The translations under genes were made by a program, and so were the position numbers. The notes below the pieces were generated by a model. It searched no databases. It was not told where the DNA came from and worked only from the letters and a program-made list of their open reading frames with translations. A stretch of DNA of 64,000 nt from an uncultured Nitrososphaeraceae archaeon. Its GTDB lineage: Archaea > Thermoproteota > Nitrososphaeria > Nitrososphaerales > Nitrososphaeraceae. Within the stretch, counting starts at the first letter, position 1. Each line of letters starts with the position of its first letter. The stretch lies in NCBI GenBank assembly GCA_963779615.1, contig CAVZZA010000004.1, positions 160,001 to 224,000 of the forward strand, read 5' to 3'. Positions 3,134 through 54,284 of this stretch are shown here, one piece after another.

Positions 3134-4377
3134 ATATTGATTCCATATTAAAAAACATAGATCCTGAAATTTCAACCATATTGGATAAATCACTTAGTGA
3201 TAAAGAAATATCAAATCCGGATGCCATAAAGCTATTCAATAGCAAAGATATAGAAATTTCCATTATTTGCTTAATTGCAGATGAATTAAGAAGGAGGGAA
3301 AATGGCAATGTTGTAACATATGTAGTCAATAGAAATATCAATTTTACAAATGTATGTATAAAACAATGTGGATTTTGCGCTTTTAGTAGGGATTTTAGGC
3401 AAGAAGAAGGATATCTTTTACCAATTGAAGAAATAGTGTCAAGAGCAAAGGAAGCTTGGAAATATGGTGCAACTGAAGTGTGTATTCAAGCGGGGTTGCC
3501 CCCAAATATGGATGGTTATCTTTATGTGGACATATGTAAAGCTATAAAAAAAGAGTTACCAGATATTCATATACATGCCTTTTCTCCGGAAGAAATTCTT
3601 TACGCATCCCTGAAGTCAAATACAAGCGTCCATGATTATCTAAAAATGTTAAAGGAAGTTGGTATAGGAAGCTTGCCTGGAACATCTGCTGAAATATTGG
3701 TTAAAGAAATTAGAAATAAAATTTCCCCAGGTAGGATAACTGTAGAAGATTGGGTTAAGGTGATTACAGCTGCTCATAAGCTTGATATTCCAACTACATC
3801 TACAATCATGTATGGCCATATAGAAACGTTTGAAGACATAGTATCACATTTGTCCATATTAAGAAAAATCCAAAAGGAAACAAACCGTTTTACTGAATTT
3901 GTTCCATTAAGCTTTATTCACACGGAATCTCCAATGTATAATTTAGGATTAATTCCAAATATGAGGGAAGGTGCCGCAGGTGTTGAGGTTTTAAAAATGC
4001 ATGCGATTTCAAGAATATTCTTTAACCAGTTAATAAGAAATATTCAAGTGTCATGGGTAAAAGAAGGCCAAAAGTTATCTCAAATAATTCTGGGATCCGG
4101 TGCCAATGATATGGGAGGTTGCTTAATAAATGAAAGCATATCTACTTCTGCAGGTTCTCAACATGGACAGCTATTGAGACCTAGAGAAATGAAAAAACTC
4201 ATTAGTTCCGCAGGAAAGGTCCCTGCCCAAAGAACATCAAATTATAAAATAATCAAAGAGTTTGAGACTAAAGAAGAGATAGAGGATGAATCAACTTTGG
4301 ATAAGATTGACCCTAAAATATTTGGGTCCTATAAAGAATTGATTACCCTAAACAAATTCAGGTATAAAAAAAAATAA
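3130..4377 (+). CDS. cofH: FO synthase subunit CofH (radical SAM)
   Basis: NRNINFTNVCIKQCGFCAF, HAFSPEE, PGTSAEIL, NIQVSWVK, NESISTSAG. Confidence 0.95.
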   Translation: MNIDSILKNIDPEISTILDKSLSDKEISNPDAIKLFNSKDIEISIICLIADELRRRENGNVVTYVVNRNINFTNVCIKQCGFCAFSRDFRQEEGYLLPIEEIVSRAKEAWKYGATEVCIQAGLPPNMDGYLYVDICKAIKKELPDIHIHAFSPEEILYASLKSNTSVHDYLKMLKEVGIGSLPGTSAEILVKEIRNKISPGRITVEDWVKVITAAHKLDIPTTSTIMYGHIETFEDIVSHLSILRKIQKETNRFTEFVPLSFIHTESPMYNLGLIPNMREGAAGVEVLKMHAISRIFFNQLIRNIQVSWVKEGQKLSQIILGSGANDMGGCLINESISTSAGSQHGQLLRPREMKKLISSAGKVPAQRTSNYKIIKEFETKEEIEDESTLDKIDPKIFGSYKELITLNKFRYKKK

Positions 4378-39822: not shown

Positions 39823-40182
39823 TTAGAGCAATTTTAAATGCCCTGTTAACCTGTCTAGTCTAGGAGATGTGTCAGGACCAAACCCGCAACAAGTAAGAGT
39901 GTTTGGTTCTATCTGTGTCTTTCCTGCATCCCTTATTGCTGTCGTTAAAATATTAAACTCCCTTGCTTTTTTCATTAAATCTATTAATTCCCTTTCGGAT
40001 TTTACCTTTAATACCGCTTTTCTCTGGTTTCCATGGTTAATCCAGTTATACATGTTATCAATGTTATTGTAAACAACAGAACTACACGCATGACCTACCT
40101 GGGCTGCAATTTTACCACAACCCATGTCTAAGTCTTTTCTAACCACTATGACAAATTTAACATCCTCTTTCGAATCCATCAT
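39823..40182 (-). CDS. pth2: Peptidyl-tRNA hydrolase Pth2
   Basis: VRKDLDMGCGKIAAQVGHA, DAGKTQIEPNT, TGHLKLL. Confidence 0.93.
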   Translation of the reverse strand: MMDSKEDVKFVIVVRKDLDMGCGKIAAQVGHACSSVVYNNIDNMYNWINHGNQRKAVLKVKSERELIDLMKKAREFNILTTAIRDAGKTQIEPNTLTCCGFGPDTSPRLDRLTGHLKLL

Positions 40183-42738: not shown

Positions 42739-43229
42739 AAATATACGACGCCTTTTAAACTGGTTTGTTAAACTACTATAAAAGGAGTAAAAAACAAACA
42801 GTCGGCTGAACCTTTTTGTGGTTCGGTTCTAACTATTCATTCTTTTTTGTTGTTTTGGTGTGGTCTGTAAAGGAGGAGGAAGGGTTAGATGCATATGCAT
42901 TAGCATTTGAATTGGCTGTTGCATCCATATCTGTTGATGTTAGTCGTCTTAATTTTCTCAAATTTTTTTAGCTGTGTTTACGCCCATGTTTGATATGTGT
43001 CTTGAGTTGTCCTTTGCCTGTTGCATTAATGATTTCCCTGAATTCAAGTTTCAGAATATCATGTTGTTTGTAAGTTTGAATGCGGATACAATTTAGACCT
43101 ATGAGGAGTTTTTGCGATTGTTTGTGCTGAAGGGTCAAATGGTCGGATAGACGCAAAACTTCATCCTATCAGGGAAGCACTACCGGTAAATACGCAATTG
43201 CCTCTTTCCTTTATCGTGCAAATAACAGC

Positions 43230-43355
43230 ATGCAAAAGATTGGAGACAAACTGGTTTGCAACACTATAGAAAAAATCATAGACCATTCGAATGTGGCATT
43301 GGTGCTATGGGATGTGCAACGCGGATTTACAAAAAAATTATGGGTCAATAATTGA
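43230..43355 (+). pseudogene. N-terminal fragment resembling an isochorismatase/cysteine hydrolase
   Basis: MQKIGDKLVCNTIEKIIDHSNVALVLWDVQRGF followed soon by a stop; ALVLWDVQ resembles the first catalytic-Asp strand. Confidence 0.45.
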
Positions 43356-43374
43356 TAATGATAAAAATATGATT

Positions 43375-43929
43375 TTACGAAGACGATTGTACTTTATCGT
43401 TTATCTGTTTAACATCTCTGCGGATTTCATCAATAAGCCCCTGATTCTGTTGATTTTGTTCGTGTATGAAAGCAGTTAGTTGATTAAGAATATCACCCTT
43501 ATGTATGCCTTCCCTACCCGTACGAGGACCGCTAGCTATTTCCCCAAAAATTGTATTATGCATATCATGTAAGTACTGCTCATTATAGTCTCGTCCCAAT
43601 ATCCTTGACAGTTCTCTTATGGTATTATGTTGCTCACCCATTACTGTTAACAACTTACCTATGCTAACAGTAGCAGGGGTGCCGCCTAACTTTGAATCGA
43701 GAAATTCTTTATTAAACCTAGATGTATTGGCCATGACATTTTGAGGAGCGTTATCAACCAGGCTGTGATTTACATTTTGATTTTGGGTGTTTTTTTCGCT
43801 CTCATTGACCATTAACATCTTTATATGGCCAAGGCTTATGACGTAATCGTTTTTAGTCAAGATAATATAAACAATCGGTTTTGTCGGAAGAAACTTACTA
43901 TAATGCATATACCCAACACCTATTTTCAT
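43375..43929 (-). CDS. Hypothetical helical/coiled-coil protein (start may be the internal Met near 43811)
   Basis: 184-aa ORF with Q/E/N-rich helical segments. Confidence 0.6.
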   Translation of the reverse strand: MKIGVGYMHYSKFLPTKPIVYIILTKNDYVISLGHIKMLMVNESEKNTQNQNVNHSLVDNAPQNVMANTSRFNKEFLDSKLGGTPATVSIGKLLTVMGEQHNTIRELSRILGRDYNEQYLHDMHNTIFGEIASGPRTGREGIHKGDILNQLTAFIHEQNQQNQGLIDEIRRDVKQINDKVQSSS

Positions 43930-44105
43930 ATTGGATGAAGTGTAGGATTGCGAATGAGCAGTTCAAACATTACAGCAAAGACCAATGAAATCAGCATTCT
44001 TCTAAATTCACCTCTTAATCGTTGGTTTAGCCAATATGTCTGTGTGTGCATCTTCTACCATTTAAGACACCTAGGATTTCACTAGGGAAAAAACTGGAAG
44101 TAAAA

Positions 44106-45020
44106 CTAACACACATGTATCCCAACTAAAGCATATCTATAAGTCCTTAGCATTGTTCTCATATGTGAGTGATCTGGCATTTCTTCTGGAAATAGCAAAT
44201 GGCCGATTTTTTTCTCTGTCGGCTGACCATAAAGCTCTGGATATGTGTAGTAACCCCTTTCACTATCTTGCTTATATCCCTCAACCTGAACCCTGTAAGC
44301 ATTCGCCCAAGGATCCCCGCGTATGCCAGTTACCTGCCAAGAGACTTTCATACCTGAAGTACCTCCTGCAATCTTGAAGCGGCTGTAGCTGTTATCGCTG
44401 CTGTTGTTACCCCCGATGCCATCTGTGGTAGTGTCAGAGATTTCCTCTGCGATATAGATATTTGGGCCAGGAGCGCCGATAGCAGTCAATTGATAACGAA
44501 AATCCTTATTGAGGGCACAGAACCAATCTGGAAGGTCTATCTCGGCTTCACCGTTTGCATCCAATACAACTACACCATCATAGATGTTCTTCATATCCGG
44601 TGACTCCACAGAGGAGTGGCGAAGATACTTGTTTGCAGGATCGACTGGATGGTCTATCCTAAATGAGCCCCCAGCTCTTGAAAGAGAGCCAGTTATTGTG
44701 ACGTTGCCGGCTAGGTATGCTGCATGGCCGTTTCCGCCGTAGGCATACATACCAACGCTGTTGTAGCTGTAACCATACACTCCAATGGATCTGTGACTGG
44801 AACCATACACGCCACTATTGCTATCACTGAAACCGTACACACCTCTGTTGCTACCGCTGGAACCATGCACTCCATTATTGCTATTACTGTAACCAAACAC
44901 TCCAATGCCTCTCTCGCTTCTGCCAATCAGGCCATAGCCTTTGCCATCGTCGGCCCCGACTGCAGATGACATATCACAGTAGCCCTCCTTCCAACAGAAA
45001 GGATTTTGCGGGATTTGCAT
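44106..45020 (-). CDS. Fibre/adhesin-like protein with Gly-rich 10-aa repeats and a C-terminal DHP..ESP..DG domain
   Basis: Seven GVxGxSxxxx-type repeats followed by FRIDHPVDPANKYLRHSSVESPDMKNIYDG...LPDWF...YQLTAIG...SWQVTGIR. Confidence 0.75.
   Translation of the reverse strand: MQIPQNPFCWKEGYCDMSSAVGADDGKGYGLIGRSERGIGVFGYSNSNNGVHGSSGSNRGVYGFSDSNSGVYGSSHRSIGVYGYSYNSVGMYAYGGNGHAAYLAGNVTITGSLSRAGGSFRIDHPVDPANKYLRHSSVESPDMKNIYDGVVVLDANGEAEIDLPDWFCALNKDFRYQLTAIGAPGPNIYIAEEISDTTTDGIGGNNSSDNSYSRFKIAGGTSGMKVSWQVTGIRGDPWANAYRVQVEGYKQDSERGYYTYPELYGQPTEKKIGHLLFPEEMPDHSHMRTMLRTYRYALVGIHVC
44741..44933 (-). repeat. 30-bp coding tandem repeat (about 6.5 units)
   Basis: AACCATACAC-like unit recurs at 44771, 44801, 44831, 44861 and 44891. 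Confidence 0.85.
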
Positions 45021-46286
45021 TTACTTGATGTAAAAGAAAATAACTTGCACTTACCATAAGAAATTTTATAAAAATGTAATTATTTAATCCATTTGTTCGC
45101 ATTTCCTCCACAAATAGAACAAGTGCAGCACTTATTCATGGTTAACACGACGGTAACAAACCAAATTGAAACACAAGCTGGAAGCTTTAGCCAGACACTA
45201 AATTATTAGACACCATCTATTTTTATTTAATCAAATTATAATAACCAGGTTCTTGTTTTATTTCTATTTTCAACCAATATTTTGTCACATTTTCTTTATA
45301 CCGTACTGCCAAAAATTCAAAATTAATAAAACTTTAAAATCATTTATTTTGATGACGGTTTTATCATCCATTGCAATAAATCGAAAATAGACACTGCCAT
45401 TTCTTGTCTCTTGACCGTCAATTTATATTCCACTTTTTGGTAAAGAATTTCGTTAAAACCTGTCTTAGCAAAGAACTCCTTTTCGTTAATTCTTATTTAT
45501 ACGATTATATGATTTAATAATACACAGGATTAATTAATAGTATATATTTTAAAAAAACTTAAATAGTATTTTACAAAACAATTACTGAATACATTGAACT
45601 TCCTGCCATGAGTATTCTGTAAGTAGTATTAGTATTCAAATGTGAAATTAGTTTTTATTATTATTGTAAATAACATTTACAAGGTATTCTCTAGTTTTGC
45701 ATTATCGAATATTAATCTCATTCAAATTTGAAAGTGAAAAAAGGAATTCAGTATTCGGGAAAAGTAAAGTGAAAAAAAATAACAGAATAAAGATATTGAA
45801 AAATAAACCAAATATTGGTAATTACACTTTCATTGATGATAATACAGATACCCTACCACCCAATCAACATCCCCTGACTAATGAAAAAAATGAGCCTATC
45901 AAAGAACAGAGTATCTTAAAGCAAGTGGGTGAAAAATATAAAAAGAAAAAAGTAATGAACAAAGATGAAATCAATAACAACCCTAGCAAAGGCTTAAAAT
46001 TTGCAAATCAGTCACAAAGAAACCATTCTTCAATATATGAATAACGAGTCATTTTAATCTACCATCAAAAATACATTATTATTTTTTTGTATATTCTTTT
46101 TTGGCATTTATATCAGGATCTTCCATAAACCCATCTCTTTCAATAACTCCTGCTTTGTTTTCAGGCTGAACGGTGAGGAATCTATGGTTATATTGGACCA
46201 CTACATTTACTGGAACACCCATCTTCTCTACAATATTTAGAAAATAGTTTTAAGAAATAATTGCTTTGTGTACATATTAAAAAAAC

Positions 46287-46325
46287 ATGTTGTTCTCCAT
46301 CCAAAACAACATACAAAACAACATA
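46287..46325. promoter_or_regulatory. Possible operator: tandem 12-bp repeat plus a partial inverted copy upstream of the HTH gene
   Basis: CAAAACAACATA twice (46302-46325) and ATGTTGTT (46287-46294). Confidence 0.35.
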
Positions 46326-46429
46326 TGTAGCAGGTAAAAAATGTGGTAACAGGGATAGCGGTCAAGAAAAGGCTGTAACACCGATATCATAACTCATTTG
46401 CTTATAAACTAACCCAATAGCAATATCGG

Positions 46430-46999
46430 TTGTTGACGGTATTGTCCGCAAAAGACAAAGAAAATCTGGTTATGGACTTGCTGAAAAAAGGTTACAAAAC
46501 AATGGAGATTGCAAAGATTGCACATGTTTCAAATACCACTGTCAAGAAGATAAGGGCGAAACTACGTTCAGAGGTTAAAGAAGAACAGCAGAAAGGTGAC
46601 CAAAATAAAAAACCATTGTCTGTTTCATCACAGGCATTCAACCTATTTGAAGAGGGCAAGTCCCTTGTCCAGGTCACCACTGGGCTTGATTTGACAACAG
46701 ACCAGGCCCTAAAAATACAATCCGACTACATGACACTACGGAACATGGGAAAGGCTTCTCGTGTTCTGATGGAACACAGAAAGGACTTGGGTGCGTATTT
46801 GGGTTTGCTTGACTTTGTGAATGAGAACAAAATAAAGGTGAAGGACTTGAGCCATGCGATGGATTTGGCACGTAACATAGACAATCTGAAAAAAGAGAAG
46901 GCGCAATTGGAGTTCGACATAGACACGCTGATGGATGAGAAAAAGTATTACGAGATGGAACTCGATAAAGTCAAAAACAAATATTACAAAATCCGGTAA
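46430..46999 (+). CDS. HTH DNA-binding protein with coiled-coil C-terminus
   Basis: GYKTMEIAKIAHVSNTTVKKI HTH; second HTH-like segment AFNLFEEGKSLVQVTTGLDL. Confidence 0.78.
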   Translation: MLTVLSAKDKENLVMDLLKKGYKTMEIAKIAHVSNTTVKKIRAKLRSEVKEEQQKGDQNKKPLSVSSQAFNLFEEGKSLVQVTTGLDLTTDQALKIQSDYMTLRNMGKASRVLMEHRKDLGAYLGLLDFVNENKIKVKDLSHAMDLARNIDNLKKEKAQLEFDIDTLMDEKKYYEMELDKVKNKYYKIR

Positions 47000-47448
47000 A
47001 TACACAATTACTCAAGATATAAAATATCAAAACGTCTTTTTATAGTATATATTTGGTTAATCACTTCATTTATAAAAAATGGTTTAATTTTTACTCATCT
47101 ATACCATGCGTAATCCTTTTTAATTATATTTATAATGCATAGAAAATGGGCCACACAATTCCATCATTCAGGCAACTACTTGAAATCGAGAAACTTGATT
47201 GGCCTAATTTTGAGAAAACATTACCAACTAAAAAAAATAAAAAAACATTTGATAGAATTTATGAAAAATTTACAATCATTTCCTTTCAATACGCGTTGTA
47301 AAAACAATTGTTCACGAGCATATAATGAGTAACACCTGTTTTCATAATTATGTATATCTATTGTATTTATTATTAATGAAGAGAATGTTAATGGGATTTT
47401 AATTAAAGAGTGACTAATATAAAAGTTAAAAAATCATAATATTATTTT

Positions 47449-48077
47449 TTGATTGTGGGAAATAATGAAAGTTTTATTTCCAAGGTACTTACAACTATAA
47501 TTGCAGGGCTTGCAATTTTTATAATAAGTCAAATTTACACAGACATCTATAAGCAACCACTTATTGGGATTGATTTGGAGTCTTTAGGTATAGAGAATTC
47601 AAATCTTATAAATAAGATTACGCTTAAAAATGGTGGACACAATAGTGCAAATAATTTTAGGTTAACAATTAATACTGATGCCATGATTCAGAATTTTAGT
47701 AAAGTATTTTTTGTTGAGAATTTTAGCACACCGGTAATAGAAAATAGTCAGTTTTTAACTACTTCTGCCCCTAGATTAACTGTTGGTTCGATACTTGTAT
47801 TGGATACAATTATTAAACCATTAAAAAATAATACAAAATACAATATTTTTGTTACTTATGATCAAGGAGTACAAATACATCATATATCCTAAATACCAAA
47901 AATCAAGCAATTGTGGCTAATGAGCCTAAAAACTTTTATGATATGATTTGGGAATCAGCTGCGGTACTCAATTCGTCCTATGCTATTATAATTGTGATAA
48001 TAATTACAATTGTAGTAAAAATTCTTGGATATATTCGACAAAGAACTCGGGTTTATACAAAAAAAAACTCGACATAA
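47449..48077 (+). CDS. Membrane protein with N- and C-terminal TM helices, frameshifted near 47866
   Basis: ORF 47449-47892 continues in another frame (STNTSYILN...YAIIIVIIITIVVKIL...*) if one G is added at CAAGGAGT. Confidence 0.55.
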
Positions 48078-48462
48078 ATAAGGTAATCTATTTTTAAAAA
48101 ATAGATATTTCGAAAATGATTTTATAACGATTGGAAAAGGAATACCCTTTAATGGTTTTGTAAAATGAGCCTATGTAGTTAGTAATCCCAAAGGGGTTTA
48201 GTAATAGATATGTTACGAACCCGGTTTTGATGTGTTTTTAAATTTCAATAATAAGATTTCTTACTATGTGTATTAATGTGTCTTGGAGGAAAATTATGGA
48301 TAAGTTATTCTATACTGATTGACTCTTCTTTACAAGAAAGAAATGCAAATTAAAACATGCAATTAATTAATTAAATCTTTTTGTAAACTAATAGAATAGA
48401 GAATATAAATCATGAAGTAAACAAAGCCATTATATTTTGAAACTTTAAGTTCAAAAACACCT

Positions 48463-49622
48463 TTAAATCATAAATCTATTGATAACATTATACAGCCAAT
48501 TATATTTTAATCTCAAACTTTCCAGTTTTAGAAATCCTTTGCTGTTTTTTAATGACGCATTTATTCTATGTTTTGGATTAAAGCTATTGTCGAGTCGTTC
48601 AACATCATTGCATTTCTTCAACCATTCATTTAATATGGATATTGATTCTCCATGGCTTTTTCTTTTTGATTAAGTAGGGTCCTAAAATCAGCCTTAGTGT
48701 TTCTTTTCTTCCATCCGGGATACCTGTTATGAGTAGTTTTTCTATCCAGTTTATCTGGAAGTTGTTATTTGCAGTTGTTAAATCTAGTCGCTTCCCCCCA
48801 GTTTTGAATGCTTTCTCATAAGGTATTTTTGGTGTATCTCCTGCTCCGTTATCCATCTCCTGAAACCTTTTGTTAGTTGTTTTATTGGCGGCCTGCAGCC
48901 ATTCCGCTCTTGGATTACTTTGACCATCGATTTTTCATAAGCAAGTTCTCTAGCCAGGCATTTGGAGTTGTATGTGTTTGGAATCCTTATCAGACAGGAC
49001 TTGTACTTTGGCCTATGCTGTGGGTCGGCCCTTCCCCTGTAAACAGGCCCTCAGCATACTTTAGAAAAACCTCTGACACAAAAGACCCACAGTATTTTCC
49101 ATTGCAGGATGAAAACAGGCTGGGAAACCTGTCTTTGGAAAATGGGTCATATGTGTCCAATACCATAGACTGGATTGGAAGGTATATGTGGTAGCCATTG
49201 CCGGACCAAATCACGGTGGGGCGAATTGGCCTGATGCTGTAATGCTCTTGGTTCTGCTGTTGGCAATCATGCATATCCGAACTGGCGGGGACCCTCTGGC
49301 CAAATACTGAAGAGATGTTTTTCAGTGTTTTCTCCAAAGCCCTGTTGAGCATTTTCATAGGGTCCTTATACCTTGAAAAATATGACTTGTCAAGGTCGAT
49401 GAAGATAAAGTTGGGCGGCTGCCTTGCAATTCCCTGGTATTCTACATATTCAGGATAAGCGTTGAGGCAGCAGTCAATGTAATTGGATTCCTTGCATCTT
49501 TGCAATAGTTCTTCTTTGGATGTAACGGTAAACTGACCGTTAGATGAAAGAGTCATCATCCTCCGGGGGAATAACGGTTCCTCAAAATGAGACAAAATGA
49601 AATCAATATCTTCTTTATTCAT
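48463..49622 (-). CDS. Archaeo-eukaryotic primase (AEP) fused to a PriX-like domain; three frameshifts in homopolymer runs
   Basis: AEP motifs FIDLD, SGNGYHIY, LIRIPNT; C-terminal WIEKLL.TGIPDGRK..LILGPYL..ILNEWLKKC; frame changes near 49035, 48796 and 48660. Confidence 0.8.
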
Positions 49623-51994
49623 CCGGATTCTTCTTCGTTTTTCAAGTCTTCAGTGGAGTTCTCCATCATTTTCTTTTTTGTTAGGGATATTACACATTTC
49701 TCTCTTTTATCCATATTTCCTTTTACTGGTAATTTTAGTAATTCGCCCTTGTGATTCTCAAGCGAGTGCAGCTCCATATCAAAGTCGATATTTGTAGAAT
49801 ATGCATTACCGCAGAAATAGCACGGATACTTTGGAGGCATATTGGTGACGGAAGTGACACTTGTGACGCTTTCTGAAGGTGTGGGGGTATTATTATTTAC
49901 ATTGTTTTTTAGTCCTATTCTATTTTTTTCCTGTGTATTGATTGGGGGTTGTATGTCTGTTGGTGTTGTGACACCTTTTTCAAATATAGTCGATGTTAAT
50001 GTGGAACCAAAGTTGTTATTATTGGAATTTGTCTCTGAGCTGTCATCAGTTACAGATGAATCTATTGGAGCATTAGTTTTGTTATCATCATTGTCATTGC
50101 GGTCTTCAGAATTGATTAAACAATCGTCTTGCTTTGAATCATAATTATCAGCTTTAACTTGCTGTTGTTCATCAAGTCCATCAGAAGTTTCACCACCGCT
50201 AACTTCAATATTGTCAAAAGGGGGGCAGGCACTCTCTAAACCCGTCACCTCTGTCACCTCTGTCACTGTTTTTTTCTCTTTCTTGCTATCGTCTAAAACT
50301 TTGGATGTGCTTTCTTCTCCCTCTTCTTTTGCTATATCGTCAATAACTATCTCTTCGACAACTTCGTATTGCTTTGACATTTTTTCCAGGTCCGACTTGT
50401 TAAAGCGAAACCCCCTTTTATGGTTGGTTCGAAAGGCCACTGCCTTAAACTTTGATTTCAGTAACGAGGAGACCTTTGCCTTGGTTAGTTTGGTGCCATC
50501 GGGCAGGTAAACGGCATTGCCCAAAACCCCCCACTGATCTTCTCGCCCATCCGTTACCTCCTTTAGTTTGTCAAAAATTTCATCGTTTGAAAACTCATAG
50601 AGTTTCTGTCTGCTGTTGTTGTTGTCCTCTTCCCTTTTAATCAACTCAAACAACGCCTCTACTATTTTCGCTTCTATGGAGTTGCTCTTTAACACTGATT
50701 TTTCGTTTATCATCTTTGATAACGCCAACCTAATTCTGTCAAAGTTTTTTCCTTGGCTGAATAGTGTCAATATGGGCTGGGTTAGCTCTTTGTTCCTGTT
50801 CCTTATGTTTAGTTTGATTAGCGAAAAATCGTTATTGAATTGAGTCATTTTAAATGCAATCAGTAATTTTCTGAGGTGTATCAGCTGTTTGTAATGGCCA
50901 GAGGTTTTGTCCTTTAGGATATCCTTTATGTTATGCTGCACCTCGCCAATCAGAAATTTGTGTATGAAGGAGCGGTCTATAATCCCCCTAATGCTTTTTT
51001 CATGTGGCAGCTCCTCCATCGACAGCCATTTGTGAGAAAACGTAAGGTATGATGACTGGCTTCTAACCCCATTCTTGTTGAACTCAACCTTGGGGACATT
51101 ACCGCCACTGGCATACCCTGTCTTGAGTATTCTCTGCTTGTCGATATCATAGCCAATGTTGTCAGCTTCGTCTTCGGCTATGGTGCCCTGCCCTTCCTGG
51201 ATGTCTCCCAAGAATGTGTAATAGTTGGCCGAATTGGCAGCCGTCACATAGAATACCCTATAGCCTAGCATCCTGTAAACCAAAAGGGCCGAGTTCTTGC
51301 CCGAGCCATTTTCGCCTATCAGTATGTTGTAGTTTGTCGTTCCAAATTTGTCCTGAAAGTAGCTGCCAACGGTGTTTGCTACGAAGGTTACCAAGCTGTG
51401 CTCATCAACGCTAACGTATTTTTCATATTCTTTGAGGACCTTATCAAACAAGGAGTCAAATGTCTCTTTCTTTGATAACTGCAGATATTCCTTCACCTCT
51501 TGCTCAGAGTCAAATATGTATGGTATGGGATTAACGGTATTGATGTGGTCCATGGGATAAAATGTATAGTTAGCGCCATCGATTTTGTCCTGTATATGAC
51601 ACTTTTCCTCGTCATAAAAAACAAATTTTGGTAAACCGCCTATAACAATCGATTCAAATAACTTGTCATTGTATTCGTCCTTTCGGAGGAAGGTTGTTTT
51701 TTGGTCCCGTTCACTTCCCTCATTGTTTCCTTCACTCTCCATCAATGAATCTAAATTTTCATATATCGCATTTTCCAAAAGGTTATAATGTTGAGTAGAG
51801 ATATTGGGAACTTGATCTTTTACTTTGTTTTCAAATGCTTTGAATGATTTTTGCAAATCCTTTGTCCTGAATATGCTATAAATTGTTTGCTTGCCATATA
51901 TTTCGGTAAATTCAAGCTCAATGACCCCATTGTTTCTGATTCCAAATTTGGAGAGAATGGATTTCAATTCTTCCGATATGGCAAAGTCAATCAT
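49619..51994 (-). CDS. Mobile-element replication ATPase/helicase-like protein with C-terminal Zn finger
   Basis: Walker A GENGSGKN, Walker B IAEDEAD, putative Arg finger IIDRS; low-complexity linker bounded by VT repeats; CYFC...H; stop overlaps the primase start (ATGA). Confidence 0.75.
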   Translation of the reverse strand: MIDFAISEELKSILSKFGIRNNGVIELEFTEIYGKQTIYSIFRTKDLQKSFKAFENKVKDQVPNISTQHYNLLENAIYENLDSLMESEGNNEGSERDQKTTFLRKDEYNDKLFESIVIGGLPKFVFYDEEKCHIQDKIDGANYTFYPMDHINTVNPIPYIFDSEQEVKEYLQLSKKETFDSLFDKVLKEYEKYVSVDEHSLVTFVANTVGSYFQDKFGTTNYNILIGENGSGKNSALLVYRMLGYRVFYVTAANSANYYTFLGDIQEGQGTIAEDEADNIGYDIDKQRILKTGYASGGNVPKVEFNKNGVRSQSSYLTFSHKWLSMEELPHEKSIRGIIDRSFIHKFLIGEVQHNIKDILKDKTSGHYKQLIHLRKLLIAFKMTQFNNDFSLIKLNIRNRNKELTQPILTLFSQGKNFDRIRLALSKMINEKSVLKSNSIEAKIVEALFELIKREEDNNNSRQKLYEFSNDEIFDKLKEVTDGREDQWGVLGNAVYLPDGTKLTKAKVSSLLKSKFKAVAFRTNHKRGFRFNKSDLEKMSKQYEVVEEIVIDDIAKEEGEESTSKVLDDSKKEKKTVTEVTEVTGLESACPPFDNIEVSGGETSDGLDEQQQVKADNYDSKQDDCLINSEDRNDNDDNKTNAPIDSSVTDDSSETNSNNNNFGSTLTSTIFEKGVTTPTDIQPPINTQEKNRIGLKNNVNNNTPTPSESVTSVTSVTNMPPKYPCYFCGNAYSTNIDFDMELHSLENHKGELLKLPVKGNMDKREKCVISLTKKKMMENSTEDLKNEEESG
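49845..50266. repeat. Two mutually inverted arrays of GTGAC (3 copies each, 9-bp period); candidate iterons
   Basis: GTGAC at 49845, 49854, 49863 (extra copy at 49968); GTCAC at 50244, 50253, 50262. Confidence 0.85.
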
Positions 51995-52134
51995 CAGATA
52001 TTCCTTCCAAAATCCTCAATGGGTTTATCTTTGAAATCAGAACATTTGAAATTAGTGATTTTATTATTAGTATGAGGTGGAATTATGGTTACGCCTATAT
52101 CATTGAACCAAAAGTCAGTATTACTGTGATTCAT
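51994..52134 (-). pseudogene. N-terminal remnant of a bifunctional primase-polymerase (Prim-Pol)
   Basis: MNHSNTDFWFNDIGVTIIPPHTNNK...SDFKDKP resembles the Prim-Pol opening motif, then stops; TGATG overlap with the helicase start. Confidence 0.5.
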
Positions 52135-52436
52135 TTTCTTTGCTGCTGTTTCCTGTGGCATTTGCAGTTGCAGATAACAAAAATTTTCAGCCCCAGCTTG
52201 TCGACATACCGCACTTTGCATTCCTGGCAGGTGTTTGTGGGGCATTTTGTGGGTTTTAATATGCGGCTGTATCCTGCTGATGAAGATAAATATAAACAGT
52301 CCCTTTGTGTAATGTTATTAGGCGCAGTTGGTGTCGTGTTTGATTTCCTCTCCCTGTACAGAATGGGTTGTAGTGAACAGATGCGGCTTGTAGTCGGCAT
52401 GTGCTTTTGATTCCGTCTTTCCCTCTGGTCCCTCAA
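52131..52436 (-). CDS. Small Cys-rich protein
   Basis: CPTNTCQEC and CNCKCH motifs; lies in the co-oriented element gene run. Confidence 0.5.
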   Translation of the reverse strand: MRDQRERRNQKHMPTTSRICSLQPILYRERKSNTTPTAPNNITQRDCLYLSSSAGYSRILKPTKCPTNTCQECKVRYVDKLGLKIFVICNCKCHRKQQQRK

Positions 52437-52575
52437 CCGAGTTGGACGGAATCAAATTCTTTTTCAAGTAAACAGAAGTTTTGCAGTAGCTGCACGTTGT
52501 TACGAATCTGTTTTTCCCCTTGTATACCCAAAGGTGGGAGCACCTCTGGCACCTTAAAGTTAAATTGGACTCCAT
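52318..52575 (-). CDS. Small Zn-ribbon protein
   Basis: CQRC..W.YKG...CSYC; TTTTATATA box about 25-33 nt upstream of ATG 52575 supports this start. Confidence 0.68.
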   Translation of the reverse strand: MESNLTLRCQRCSHLWVYKGKNRFVTTCSYCKTSVYLKKNLIPSNSVEGPEGKTESKAHADYKPHLFTTTHSVQGEEIKHDTNCA

Positions 52576-52887
52576 AAAGGCTATATACCAACTGTTTACT
52601 ATATAAAAGAAAGAGATTTTTTTTTGACTAAACATTCATCGATTTAATGGTTATGGGCAATAAACGACTGAGCAGTTACTACCTTATTCATAATACAAAT
52701 CAAACCTATTACAGGCTTAGGATATGGATAGGATTAGATATATTTGGCGCCACCCTTTAACTGCATTAGATATTTCTGGCTTGATCATAAATGATAGGAG
52801 TGACAACCAAAGAAAATATCGTATATTCTCTTGTGATCGGCAAAAATGTCAAACCTGCCAGACTTTTGAGTTAAACAAAAGAAGTGC

Positions 52888-54153
52888 CTATGATTCTTTT
52901 TCCTTCATTATCCCGGATGTGAATAAAGAATGCGCAATGACATTAACCTGCTGTTGATTTTTAGTTTCTGATAGACCTGAAACCAGTTTCTCAACCATGG
53001 TTTTCATCGATGAGAATTGGTCTGTAAGTGATTTTATTTGCTCATCTTTTTCTTGTAATTTTCCTTTGATAAGATATGTTTCTTCTTGACTCTTCAGTTC
53101 GTATTTTTGTAACTCCTTTTGCAGTTTTCCTTGTTTGTCAATCATTAGCAAGTCTGATACTTTCAAATAGTCTTCCAACAGTTCAGTGTCTGTTGGCCGA
53201 TAATACGAGTTGCTAATGCCTATGCTGTGGGACAGCAGTTTTTCAATGTTTATTGGCTTCATGCCTGCTATCTCGGCCCGGGTTTTGAACCATTTCCTTA
53301 AACTGTGTACCGCAGAAAACGGATGTCTTTTCTTTCCGTTTTCCAATTTCTTCCTTAAGCCCTGAGCCCAAATGGCCCTTTCAATCAATCGTTTTATCCC
53401 AGAGGGTGCTAATTTTATGGGTTTTGTAGCAAAGCCCCTTCCTTGGGCCACCCTAGTGTCCCACAAGTCACGCATAAGCCAACTGTTTTCATCTATCAAC
53501 TCGCCAGAATCATCGCGGTATTTCATCCAGTCCTTTAATGCATGGTAGGCCTCTTTGGAGGTGAACGAGTAATATTCCTCATCCTCTTCCGCATAAACAA
53601 TGATTTTGGCTGCAACCACATCCCCATCCTTTTCTATCGGACGTATGTGACCCCATCTCAAATAGTCCCAAGCGCCCAACCGAATTCCGGAAGAGGCCAT
53701 GGTATACACAATGGCCTTGATTCTCCTGTCAGGGTATTCCAGTAGTTTTCGTATCTCATCATTTGTGGGAACCCTGTCATCGGCATAATCCCTTCCCTTC
53801 GGAAGCCCTCTTGTTATCTTTTTCCATGTTATTGGTATGTCGGCCATTTCGCAGAACAGCTTTATGCTTTTTAGATAGTTTCTTACGGTTGCACCCGTTA
53901 TCTCTTTTCTGTCCACCTTTGCCAGGTTAAACTGCATGAACCTTAACAGGCTGTTGAAAACCCACTGGTTTCCGTCTTTTCCCCTTACATCCATAAACAC
54001 TTTGCTCTTTTCCTCAACGGTTGAGCCTTCCAAGCCTAGAAAATCGAAAAACCTTTCCAGCCTCTTCTGGTACTTTTCCCTTGTCACCGGCGACTTTAAC
54101 GCATACAAATACAGTGACCAAAGGTCTGGTTCCACATTATTGTATTTTATCAC
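52888..54153 (-). CDS. Tyrosine recombinase/integrase (intact)
   Basis: SSGIRLG (Arg I), HSLRK (HxxR), LLSH, SYY (catalytic Tyr); coiled-coil C-terminal tail. Confidence 0.93.
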   Translation of the reverse strand: MIKYNNVEPDLWSLYLYALKSPVTREKYQKRLERFFDFLGLEGSTVEEKSKVFMDVRGKDGNQWVFNSLLRFMQFNLAKVDRKEITGATVRNYLKSIKLFCEMADIPITWKKITRGLPKGRDYADDRVPTNDEIRKLLEYPDRRIKAIVYTMASSGIRLGAWDYLRWGHIRPIEKDGDVVAAKIIVYAEEDEEYYSFTSKEAYHALKDWMKYRDDSGELIDENSWLMRDLWDTRVAQGRGFATKPIKLAPSGIKRLIERAIWAQGLRKKLENGKKRHPFSAVHSLRKWFKTRAEIAGMKPINIEKLLSHSIGISNSYYRPTDTELLEDYLKVSDLLMIDKQGKLQKELQKYELKSQEETYLIKGKLQEKDEQIKSLTDQFSSMKTMVEKLVSGLSETKNQQQVNVIAHSLFTSGIMKEKES

Positions 54154-54209
54154 TTTTTTCTTTACACCTTATTTTTAGTAGAACCCAAATAAAAGAACCG
54201 TTATAGTAG

Positions 54210-54284
54210 CGGGCCCAGAGGGATTTGAACCCTCGACCAACTGCTCCGCAGGCAGCCATTCTATCCAAGCTGAACTATGAGCCC
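54210..54284 (-). tRNA. tRNA-Arg(GCG)
   Basis: Reverse complement GGGCTCATAGTTCAGCTTGGATAGAATGGCTGCCTGCGGAGCAGTTGGTCGAGGGTTCAAATCCCTCTGGGCCCG folds as a cloverleaf; anticodon GCG. Confidence 0.95.

Follow-up and report, generated by a model that had tools for sequence, protein, structure and literature searches.

Inverted 9-bp-period iteron arrays within the rep gene of an integrated Nitrososphaeraceae element: a candidate replication origin

Introduction

Contig CAVZZA010000004.1 of an uncultured Nitrososphaeraceae archaeon (assembly GCA_963779615.1) carries an integrated element whose helicase-like gene, rep, contains two short arrays of evenly spaced repeats that are translated into Val-Thr peptides. 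The question raised by this locus is what these repeats are kept for, the peptide or the DNA itself. An initial annotation, made from the letters of a 64-kb stretch of the contig (positions 160,001 to 224,000 of the forward strand, hereafter the window), had proposed that the arrays are a replication origin hidden in the helicase gene. The window, to which all positions below refer, served as our study sequence and belongs to a genome totalling 3,169,391 bp. Most likely, such archaeal elements have the origin design of the pathogenicity islands found in Staphylococcus aureus (SaPIs) and the staphylococcal cassette chromosome mec (SCCmec), overprinted here on the rep reading frame.

Results

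Two inverted arrays within the rep gene

The rep gene occupies positions 49619–51994 on the minus strand and encodes a protein of 791 amino acids (aa). The proximal iteron array (50244–50266, minus strand) consists of three GTGACR units that follow each other on the coding strand with a period of 9 bp and encode VTEVTEVT (aa 577–584). The distal iteron array (49845–49867, plus strand) also contains three GTGACR units with a 9-bp period and encodes VTSVTSVT (aa 710–717) using GTC as the Val codon. On the plus strand, GTGAC starts at 49845, 49854, and 49863 and GTCAC at 50244, 50253, and 50262; the arrays are thus mutually inverted, the distal one lying on the plus strand and the proximal one on the minus strand, with 376 bp between them. 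This arrangement, as well as a further GTGAC at 49968 within the spacer, had been described in the initial annotation and was found exactly as given there. The annotation had also held that both arrays are translated as VTxVTxVT, one with GTG only and the other with GTC only. The codons, read in coding order, agreed with this: the first array is GTG ACA GAG GTG ACA GAG GTG ACG and the second is GTC ACA AGT GTC ACT TCC GTC ACC. GTG and GTC are the rarer two Val codons in the long open reading frames (ORFs) of the window, with frequencies of 0.18 and 0.12, respectively.

The arrays were compared with what could be expected by chance. The pattern GTGAC-N4-GTGAC-N4-GTGAC, with at most one mismatch, was found twice in the window, compared with a mean of 0.00 in 100 dinucleotide-preserving shuffles. 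In the whole genome, exactly two matches to the triple GTGAC pattern were present, both of them being these arrays, and the control pattern written backwards gave none. The bare pentamer is not enriched in the window (34 GTGAC and 29 GTCAC versus approximately 37.5 expected per strand from the base composition). Meanwhile, a scan for any exact 5-mer repeated three times gave three triplets at a period of 9 bp, two of which are the arrays, and none at the periods of 5–8 and 10–18 bp. The third triplet, GTTAT ×3 at 40045–40067, lies inside a host gene for peptidyl-tRNA hydrolase (PTH2), is AT-rich, has no inverted partner, and is probably there by chance.

The runs of G that the annotation had placed just inside the arrays are present in the window (GGGGG near 49884 and GGGGGG at 50221–50226) but are not conserved in the homologues. 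In most members of the group of loci with GTGAC repeats, an AAGGTG-like motif is conserved approximately 9–11 nt inside each array; on the coding strand, it reads TTTAARGGTGCC after the first array and ACACCTTC before the second. It was seen at 49875–49882 of the window and in the inner array flanks of the loci L003–L006, L017, L041, and L049 (loci and genomes are designated here by L and G numbers). The motif resembles a degenerate, out-of-phase extra unit, and in the window the run of G overlaps it.

The Rep protein has the fold of a replicative helicase

The sequence searches with Rep gave nothing significant in Pfam, PHROGs, or PDB, the latter being searched by sequence as well as by profile. 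Namely, no Pfam family was found for Rep at E ≤ 0.01, and none of relevance appeared at E ≤ 1 for the 15 members of the homologue alignment A1. The AlphaFold model of the full-length protein was poor (predicted local distance difference test score, pLDDT, 60.6). It left aa 555–719, in which both arrays lie, disordered, and placed a small folded domain after them at the C-terminus. This fits the proposal of the annotation that the arrays are accommodated by a disordered linker. Foldseek found no match to the full-length model at E ≤ 0.001, and its match to chain 8tch_A, the Rep of SaPIbov1, was weak (E 0.066).

The part of rep coding for aa 100–555 (50330–51697, minus strand) was then modelled separately with AF2 from a 66-sequence alignment, which gave a pLDDT of 92.5. 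This part comprises a beta-barrel, an AAA+ core, a helical lid, and a winged helix (WH), and we refer to it as the helicase-WH part. Foldseek matched the model to MCM and CMG subunits and to the helicase region of the phage NrS-1 (E 3e-7 to 2e-6, probability 1.00), the best MCM-type match having an E of 3.4e-7. The VIA-align comparison with MCM (7pt6_3) gave Z 15.7 and a root-mean-square deviation of 3.7 over 253 aligned residues, and that with Cch (5dgk_A) gave Z 14.1 with 337 residues aligned, extending over the model residues 1–436 and including the terminal winged helix. According to this model, aa 100–555 of Rep fold like the MCM/Cch replicative helicases with a C-terminal winged helix; the kinship with this family was found at the level of fold, and no family match was found at the level of sequence.

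The domains can be assigned as follows. An N-terminal domain precedes the Walker A motif GENGSGKN (aa 227–234) and the Walker B motif (approximately aa 272–278), and the residues G227, S231, G232, and K233 as well as E274, D275, E276, and D278 are invariant in the homologue alignment. The winged helix lies at approximately aa 465–545 and is followed by the disordered linker (aa 555–719) and a zinc-finger-like domain of the form CxxC...HxxxH (aa 720–791). The annotation of the gene as a helicase gene is consistent with these Walker motifs as well as with the predicted AAA+ MCM/Cch-like fold.

The arrays are conserved as DNA

The search for the family of Rep gave 246 homologous proteins at E ≤ 0.001, and a rep homologue was present in 63 of the 201 sampled Nitrososphaeraceae genomes (the unpublished genomes G161 and G035 are counted here and were otherwise left aside). 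For the comparison of codons, we aligned the ten loci of the GTGAC group, which are 47–69% identical over the helicase part. The first array could be seen in eight of these loci and the second in six; the middle units are degenerate in L007 and L017, and the sequence ends too early in L032 and L049. The alignment showed that the Val codon was GTG in all 23 units of the first array and GTC in all 18 units of the second, whereas the Thr codons, the codons of the third residue, and the neighbouring synonymous positions varied. Random Val codons, which would have spoken against the proposal of the annotation, were thus not found, and the codon bias that the annotation had singled out turned out to be conserved. 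The base after GTGAC was a purine in 23/23 units of the first array and 17/18 of the second; therefore, we write the unit as GTGACR. Among the 38 codon columns that are invariant and four-fold degenerate in six of the genes, only two share the third base in all six, and both encode Val of the second array.

The 9-bp period was examined without regard to the sequence of the unit. A scan of 31 genome loci (136,976 bp) for exact 5-mer triplets gave 52 at the period of 9 bp and 0–3 at each other period from 5 to 18 bp, including the in-frame periods of 6, 12, 15, and 18 bp. The scan was replicated in 47 independent metagenome loci (162,172 bp) with 33 triplets at the period of 9 bp and 0–5 at the others. 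When one mismatch was allowed, an inverted pair of period-9 arrays after the helicase core was found in 30 of the 42 eligible loci, and no such pair appeared in any of the 42 at the control periods of 6, 7, 8, 10, 11, 12, and 15 bp. The strict rule gave a pair in 23 loci, 20 of them among the 42 eligible ones. The period and the inversion noted in the annotation hold across the family while the core and the peptide change.

Cores change together in both arms

The core of the unit varies by lineage in length (5–8 nt) as well as in sequence, and it is the same in both arms: GTGACR, TGCGACA, TGCGTCA, TGGGACA, GGGACG, CTAACAC, TATGACA, GGTGACA, and TAACGCT were found, and further copies have the cores GTGAACG and CTGAAG. 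TGCGACA and TGCGTCA differ by a one-base change that is mirrored in the partner arm. In L106 and L107 (G133), each of the three units shows the same one-base difference between the arms (GGGGAGG versus GGGTAGG as reverse complement), so these arms are not exact mirror images.

The encoded peptides follow the lineages (VT-x, ATD/VAS, SDA/DAS, RQM, and GDN/SPM). The GTGAC core itself encodes Val-Thr in L001, whereas L030 reads it in another frame, as Gly-Asp or Ser-Pro-Met. In most loci, the arrays are within the extended ORF; in 7 of 43, one array or more is found past the rep stop codon.

The layout follows a rule of position. In most loci, the first array starts 6–230 bp past the last conserved residue of the helicase-WH part; in the window, the proximal array lies 49 bp after it. 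The distances of 323–363 bp in L022, L028, and L075 come from loci in which the helicase alignment ends early. The second array lies 8–543 bp beyond the first, and most loci have exactly three units per arm. The lower limit belongs to L075, a marine metagenome contig that carries AGGGTC ×3 and GACCCT ×3 only 8 bp apart (locus positions 4154–4209); the spacers of the other loci measure 146–543 bp. L009, L012, L014, and L099 have one proximal TGCGACA array followed by two distal inverted arrays that are 72–123 bp apart, so the number of distal arms is not fixed.

Some genomes harbour more than one copy. The genome of the window contains a second, distant rep homologue on another contig (L002, G000:C1:511721-516094) with 33–34% identity, which has its own inverted period-9 pair with the core CTAACAC. 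Co-resident copies have different cores in G000, G020, G032, G138, and G140 and the same core in G002 (three copies, TGCGACA) and G076 (two copies, TGCGTCA); the evidence that co-resident elements avoid incompatibility in this way is, therefore, mixed. As for the domain that reads the core, the iteron groups differ in the wing loop of their winged helices, a comparison confounded by shared ancestry. The zinc finger was also considered as the reader and is unlikely to be one, since the CxxC...HxxxH pattern was found in only 17 of 43 loci and arrays in 39 of 43.

The spacer contains a locally AT-rich tract

The spacer between the arrays (49868–50243, 376 bp) codes for a low-complexity, disordered linker that is hypervariable in the homologue alignment A1 and has a pLDDT below 30 in the AlphaFold model. 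The guanine-cytosine (GC) content of the spacer in the window is 0.364 versus 0.411 for the helicase part. Approximately 20 bp inside the distal array, a locally AT-rich tract (49888–49929) reaches a GC content of 0.15 over 40 bp, which makes it a candidate site of first melting; no equally long helicase-coding segment of the window locus has a 40-bp stretch with a GC content as low. Across the family, the most AT-rich 40-bp tract between the arms was at or below the mean of the control segments in 29 of 30 loci and below every control segment in 13 of 30. AT-richness of the spacer as a whole was dropped as a feature of these loci, as were the antisense frame across the spacer, which contains a stop codon, and with it the idea of an invertible segment.

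Discussion

The arrays as iterons and as a probable origin

The invariant Val codons, the matched cores of the two arms, the varied reading frames, and the arrays that lie beyond the ORF indicate that the repeats are kept as DNA-level iterons co-evolving with a protein. We are, therefore, highly confident that the arrays are protein-binding sites. Identical repeated units at a fixed 9-bp step suit a multimeric DNA-binding protein. It is also likely, by analogy with known systems, that the arrays are the replication origin of the element and are used by a self-loading MCM/Cch-like helicase. We infer the binding of Rep and the activity of the origin from the anatomy of the locus together with the SaPI and Cch2 precedents. 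The constancy of the codons and the conserved period and inversion lend support to the proposal of an origin within the helicase gene, with which the annotation had started.

If the analogy with SaPI Rep and Cch2 holds, the units would be read by the winged helix with which the helicase core ends (approximately aa 465–545), so that some three subunits of one hexamer would be engaged per arm and one helicase ring would load itself on each side. The AT-rich tract between the arms would then be the first to melt, with priming done by the neighbouring primase. The candidate origin lies directly after the helicase-WH coding part, as the origins of SaPI and SCCmec do, and the rep frame of this lineage continues through it into the zinc-finger domain. 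The iterons are thus also translated (VTxVTxVT), as part of the disordered linker, and fix the choice of the Val codon.

Several observations weigh against an origin of this kind. Twelve of the 42 eligible loci have no inverted pair even by the relaxed rule. Outside the family, a homologue was found in 6 of the 300 sampled genomes of the phylum, and these six loci have no inverted pair and, in two of them, a single period-9 array. The GC content of the spacer as a whole averages 0.340 versus 0.351 for the gene and is lower in only 14 of 26 pairs, and the AT-rich tract could merely reflect the coding of Asn/Lys-rich low-complexity sequence. Another protein of the element, instead of Rep, could bind the arrays. 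Finally, the element in the window looks decayed: since its primase gene is frameshifted and no second attachment (att) site was found, this copy may no longer replicate.

Alternative explanations

The comparative data demonstrate a co-evolving DNA-level site and do not by themselves define its function, so the arrays could bind Rep or another protein of the element for a purpose other than initiation: the autoregulation of rep and primase by an intragenic roadblock, the control of copy number by handcuffing, or partition at a centromere-like site. The arrays lie inside the transcribed rep gene and upstream of the primase gene, the overall GC content of the spacer is not below that of the gene, and plasmid iterons are known to serve copy control as well. 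We nevertheless consider a purely non-initiation role rather unlikely. The period scans of the loci revealed no other repeat cluster, a local AT-rich tract is present between the arms in most loci, and the roles listed are compatible with origin function. Moreover, the position, orientation, and 9-bp triplets of the arrays match those of experimentally studied SaPI and Cch2 origins (PMC9371898, PMC7581432, bioRxiv 10.64898/2026.10.17.759575).

The remaining explanations are less likely still. That the arms pair in rep mRNA or in single-stranded DNA, where a stem would regulate translation, processing, or strand-specific replication and the co-variation would be compensatory, seems improbable to us. 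The co-variation does preserve the reverse complementarity of the arms, as would also be seen in a conserved helix, and in L019 and L027 a few distal units have C to T changes after which G-U pairs could still form. Beyond the 5-nt core, however, the similarity between units that would face each other in a stem is no higher than that between other units (0.517, n = 360, versus 0.517, n = 720), the number of units differs between the arms of L020 (5 versus 3) and L024 (3 versus 4), and L009, L012, and L014 combine one proximal with two distal arrays; nor does a stem require three direct repeats, a fixed 9-nt period, or a spacer of anything from 8 to 543 nt. We give hardly any credence to VTxVTxVT as a functional peptide repeat, such as a modification or interaction motif, with the DNA symmetry arising as a by-product of slippage and codon choice. 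Tandem repeats made by slippage do share their codons within an array, and both peptide motifs are kept in the closer homologues of the alignment A1. Nevertheless, the Val third positions are invariant where the other four-fold sites of the genes are randomised, in other lineages the same DNA architecture goes with different frames and unrelated peptides, some arrays are found outside the ORF, the region is predicted to be disordered, and the in-frame control periods of 6, 12, and 15 bp gave no such arrays. Arm-type or accessory sites of the integrase or the excision machinery are an equally remote prospect. Tyrosine integrases can use repeated accessory sites, and the tyrosine integrase of this element adjoins a tRNA-Arg gene; the arrays, however, are 2.6–4.4 kb from the tRNA end and travel with rep, directly after the helicase core, in loci of which only 5 of the 78 searched, with their short flanks, gave an integrase homologue, and their core co-varies with the rep lineage.

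Comparison with known origins

The closest precedents for a candidate origin in this position come from staphylococci. SaPI Reps bind penta- or hexanucleotide iterons located just downstream of rep through their C-terminal winged helix, and the iterons flank an AT-rich region, those on one side pointing opposite to those on the other (PMC9371898). The iterons L2–L4 of SaPI5 are 7 nt long and 2 nt apart, which corresponds to a 9-bp period, and they are occupied by three to four winged helices from a single hexamer, whose wings enter the major groove (bioRxiv 10.64898/2026.10.17.759575). The C-terminal domain of Cch2 binds a direct-repeat region of 23 bp that is located just downstream of the cch2 gene and contains the 5-nt iteron AAGTG three times (PMC7581432); if evenly spaced, three pentamers within 23 bp would also have a period of 9 bp.

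Like the SaPIs, the element studied here is integrated and encodes an integrase, a primase, and an initiator-helicase with a winged helix, and it has iterons of 5–7 nt in two opposed sets directly after the helicase part. The short repeat arrays, their position after the helicase-WH part, their opposed orientation, and the AAA+ winged-helix fold next to a primase gene are all features of the SaPI/Cch2 type. The differences are that the host is an archaeon (Nitrososphaeraceae), that no sequence similarity to SaPI Reps was detected by the sequence and profile searches of PDB, that the candidate origin is inside the rep reading frame and is translated, that most loci have three units per arm as opposed to the 6–12 iterons of SaPIs, and that the spacer is coding and only locally AT-rich. 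With Cch/Cch2 of SCCmec, the Rep locus shares an array of three short iterons after the helicase-coding part, and Cch (5dgk_A) aligns with the Rep model including the winged helix. In contrast, only one array, without an inverted partner, is reported for Cch2; it is intergenic and bacterial, and Cch2 has a different type of primase as its partner (CCPol-MP).

The annotation had named lambda O as a precedent, and this comparison holds in one respect: in both cases, the repeats lie inside the ORF of the initiator, in a part coding for a linker (here aa 577–584 and 710–717 within the disordered aa 555–719). In the lambda origin, the initiator-binding repeats are inside the O gene, in the part that codes for an inter-domain linker. 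Lambda O, however, is not a helicase, and its origin consists of four directly repeated iterons of approximately 19 bp beside an AT-rich region; the size and orientation of the units thus differ from the inverted arms of 5–7-nt units at a 9-bp period and from the helicase-fold protein found here, and the likeness is looser than that to SaPI and SCCmec. The origins of the SV40/polyomavirus large T and papillomavirus E1 proteins contain inverted pentanucleotide repeats on which two hexamers are assembled. The core origin there is noncoding and its repeats follow each other closely, unlike in the elements described here, among which L075 with its 8-bp gap is the nearest in layout. Large T and E1 are also hexameric AAA+ helicases that recognise their own origin. 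A functional comparison with them has been drawn in the work on Cch2; it is, however, an N-terminal origin-binding domain that reads the origin in their case (PMC7581432).

Cryptic integrated elements of Thaumarchaeota have been described as small, integrase-bearing elements in the tRNA genes of ammonia-oxidising archaea, with replication proteins of the MCM, Cch-like helicase, or primpol-helicase type (Krupovic et al. 2019, PMC6563490). The term origin of replication is absent from the main text of that work, and iteron is a word met only among its references. Our literature searches, which did not extend to supplements, found no description of such iterons in Nitrososphaeraceae archaea.

If the proposed origin function is correct, these would be the first sequence-defined candidate origins with a cognate initiator-helicase and primase for the mobile elements of soil ammonia-oxidising archaea, and the self-loading helicase origin design of SaPI and SCCmec would extend to archaea with the same 9-bp triplet spacing. 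Small integrated elements have been named as the best starting material for shuttle vectors (PMC6563490), and a defined Rep–iteron pair would be a part that such a vector needs. The natural specificity variants (GTGACR, TGCGACA, TGCGTCA, TGGGACA, CTAACAC, GTGAACG, and others) could be used to study how the reader recognises DNA. The locus would also be a clean example from nature of a coding sequence overprinted with a DNA code for protein binding, a code that can be searched for elsewhere because its signal is visible as invariant rare Val codons.

Taken together, these features allow a broader reading, which we regard as possible though doubtful: the rep frame has grown across the origin, Rep throttles its own synthesis, and the shared 9-bp triplets are a docking rule. 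The iterons would then dictate both the peptide and the codon choice of the disordered linker between the helicase and a zinc finger that has been captured. Transcription and translation of rep and primase would pass through the DNA on which Rep assembles, and the occupancy of this DNA by Rep would limit its own full-length synthesis, which would amount to a built-in feedback on copy number. Three units at 9 bp in both staphylococcal and archaeal elements would represent a general rule for the docking of a hexamer on duplex DNA before loading, with approximately three winged helices engaged per arm.

The integrated element and its neighbouring genes

The tRNA-Arg gene, the integrase, Rep, and the primase together define an integrated element with a helicase-primase replication module. 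The primase gene (48481–49622, minus strand) directly follows rep and is open only for its first 210 codons (48990–49622). Past this point, the homology to full-length relatives runs on in other frames down to 48481, which shows that the gene is frameshifted. A primase homologue was found near rep in 23 loci, and most untruncated copies have 301–377 aa. The C-terminal half of the primase is PriX (PF18689 in 13 of 14 members, best E 3.8e-12) and matched the PDB entries 4wyh, 5of3, and 5ofn with E of approximately 1e-14. The N-terminal half gave no match in the Pfam or PDB sequence searches. An Atlas search led from it to primase clusters, and it contains motifs that we take to be typical of archaeo-eukaryotic primases (AEPs), which makes its assignment to the AEPs only a lead.

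No left border of the element could be located in the window (region 42800–49000), and neither a repeat of the tRNA-Arg end of at least 14 nt nor a second att site was found there. The ORFs at 43375–47892 have no informative matches except for a resolvase-type helix-turn-helix protein (46430–46999), and host-like genes for an M23 peptidase, a PsbP-like protein, and PTH2 lie at 39.8–42.7 kb of the window. Four DNA metagenome runs were also compared with the window, and each contains only 5–6% of its sampled words; no RNA run was listed among those with such words. The searches of plasmid records (PLSDB, tblastn) and viral contigs gave no match, and no terminal overlap indicating a circle was seen in the loci L001–L090.

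On the other side of rep, two small ORFs lie between it and the integrase gene, one of 83 aa (51994–52245, minus strand) and one of 105 aa with a weak zinc-ribbon match (52318–52635, minus strand); they are rarely found near rep elsewhere (in one and three loci, respectively). The gene of the tyrosine integrase (52888–54153, minus strand) was identified by PF00589 with E 7.5e-6, just under the curated cut-off, and by the integrase family phrog_1 with E 2.7e-14. It abuts the 3' end of the tRNA-Arg (GCG) gene (54209–54284, minus strand), which is the likely target of integration. The flanks of the relatives beyond the tRNA match nothing in the window, and in five of the seven relatives compared, the similarity to the window ends at the 3' end of tRNA-Arg (54192–54210). 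In L083 (G096) and L088 (G103), it extends past tRNA-Arg into the integrase gene, to 53571 and 53160, respectively, which indicates that related elements occupy the same tRNA site there.

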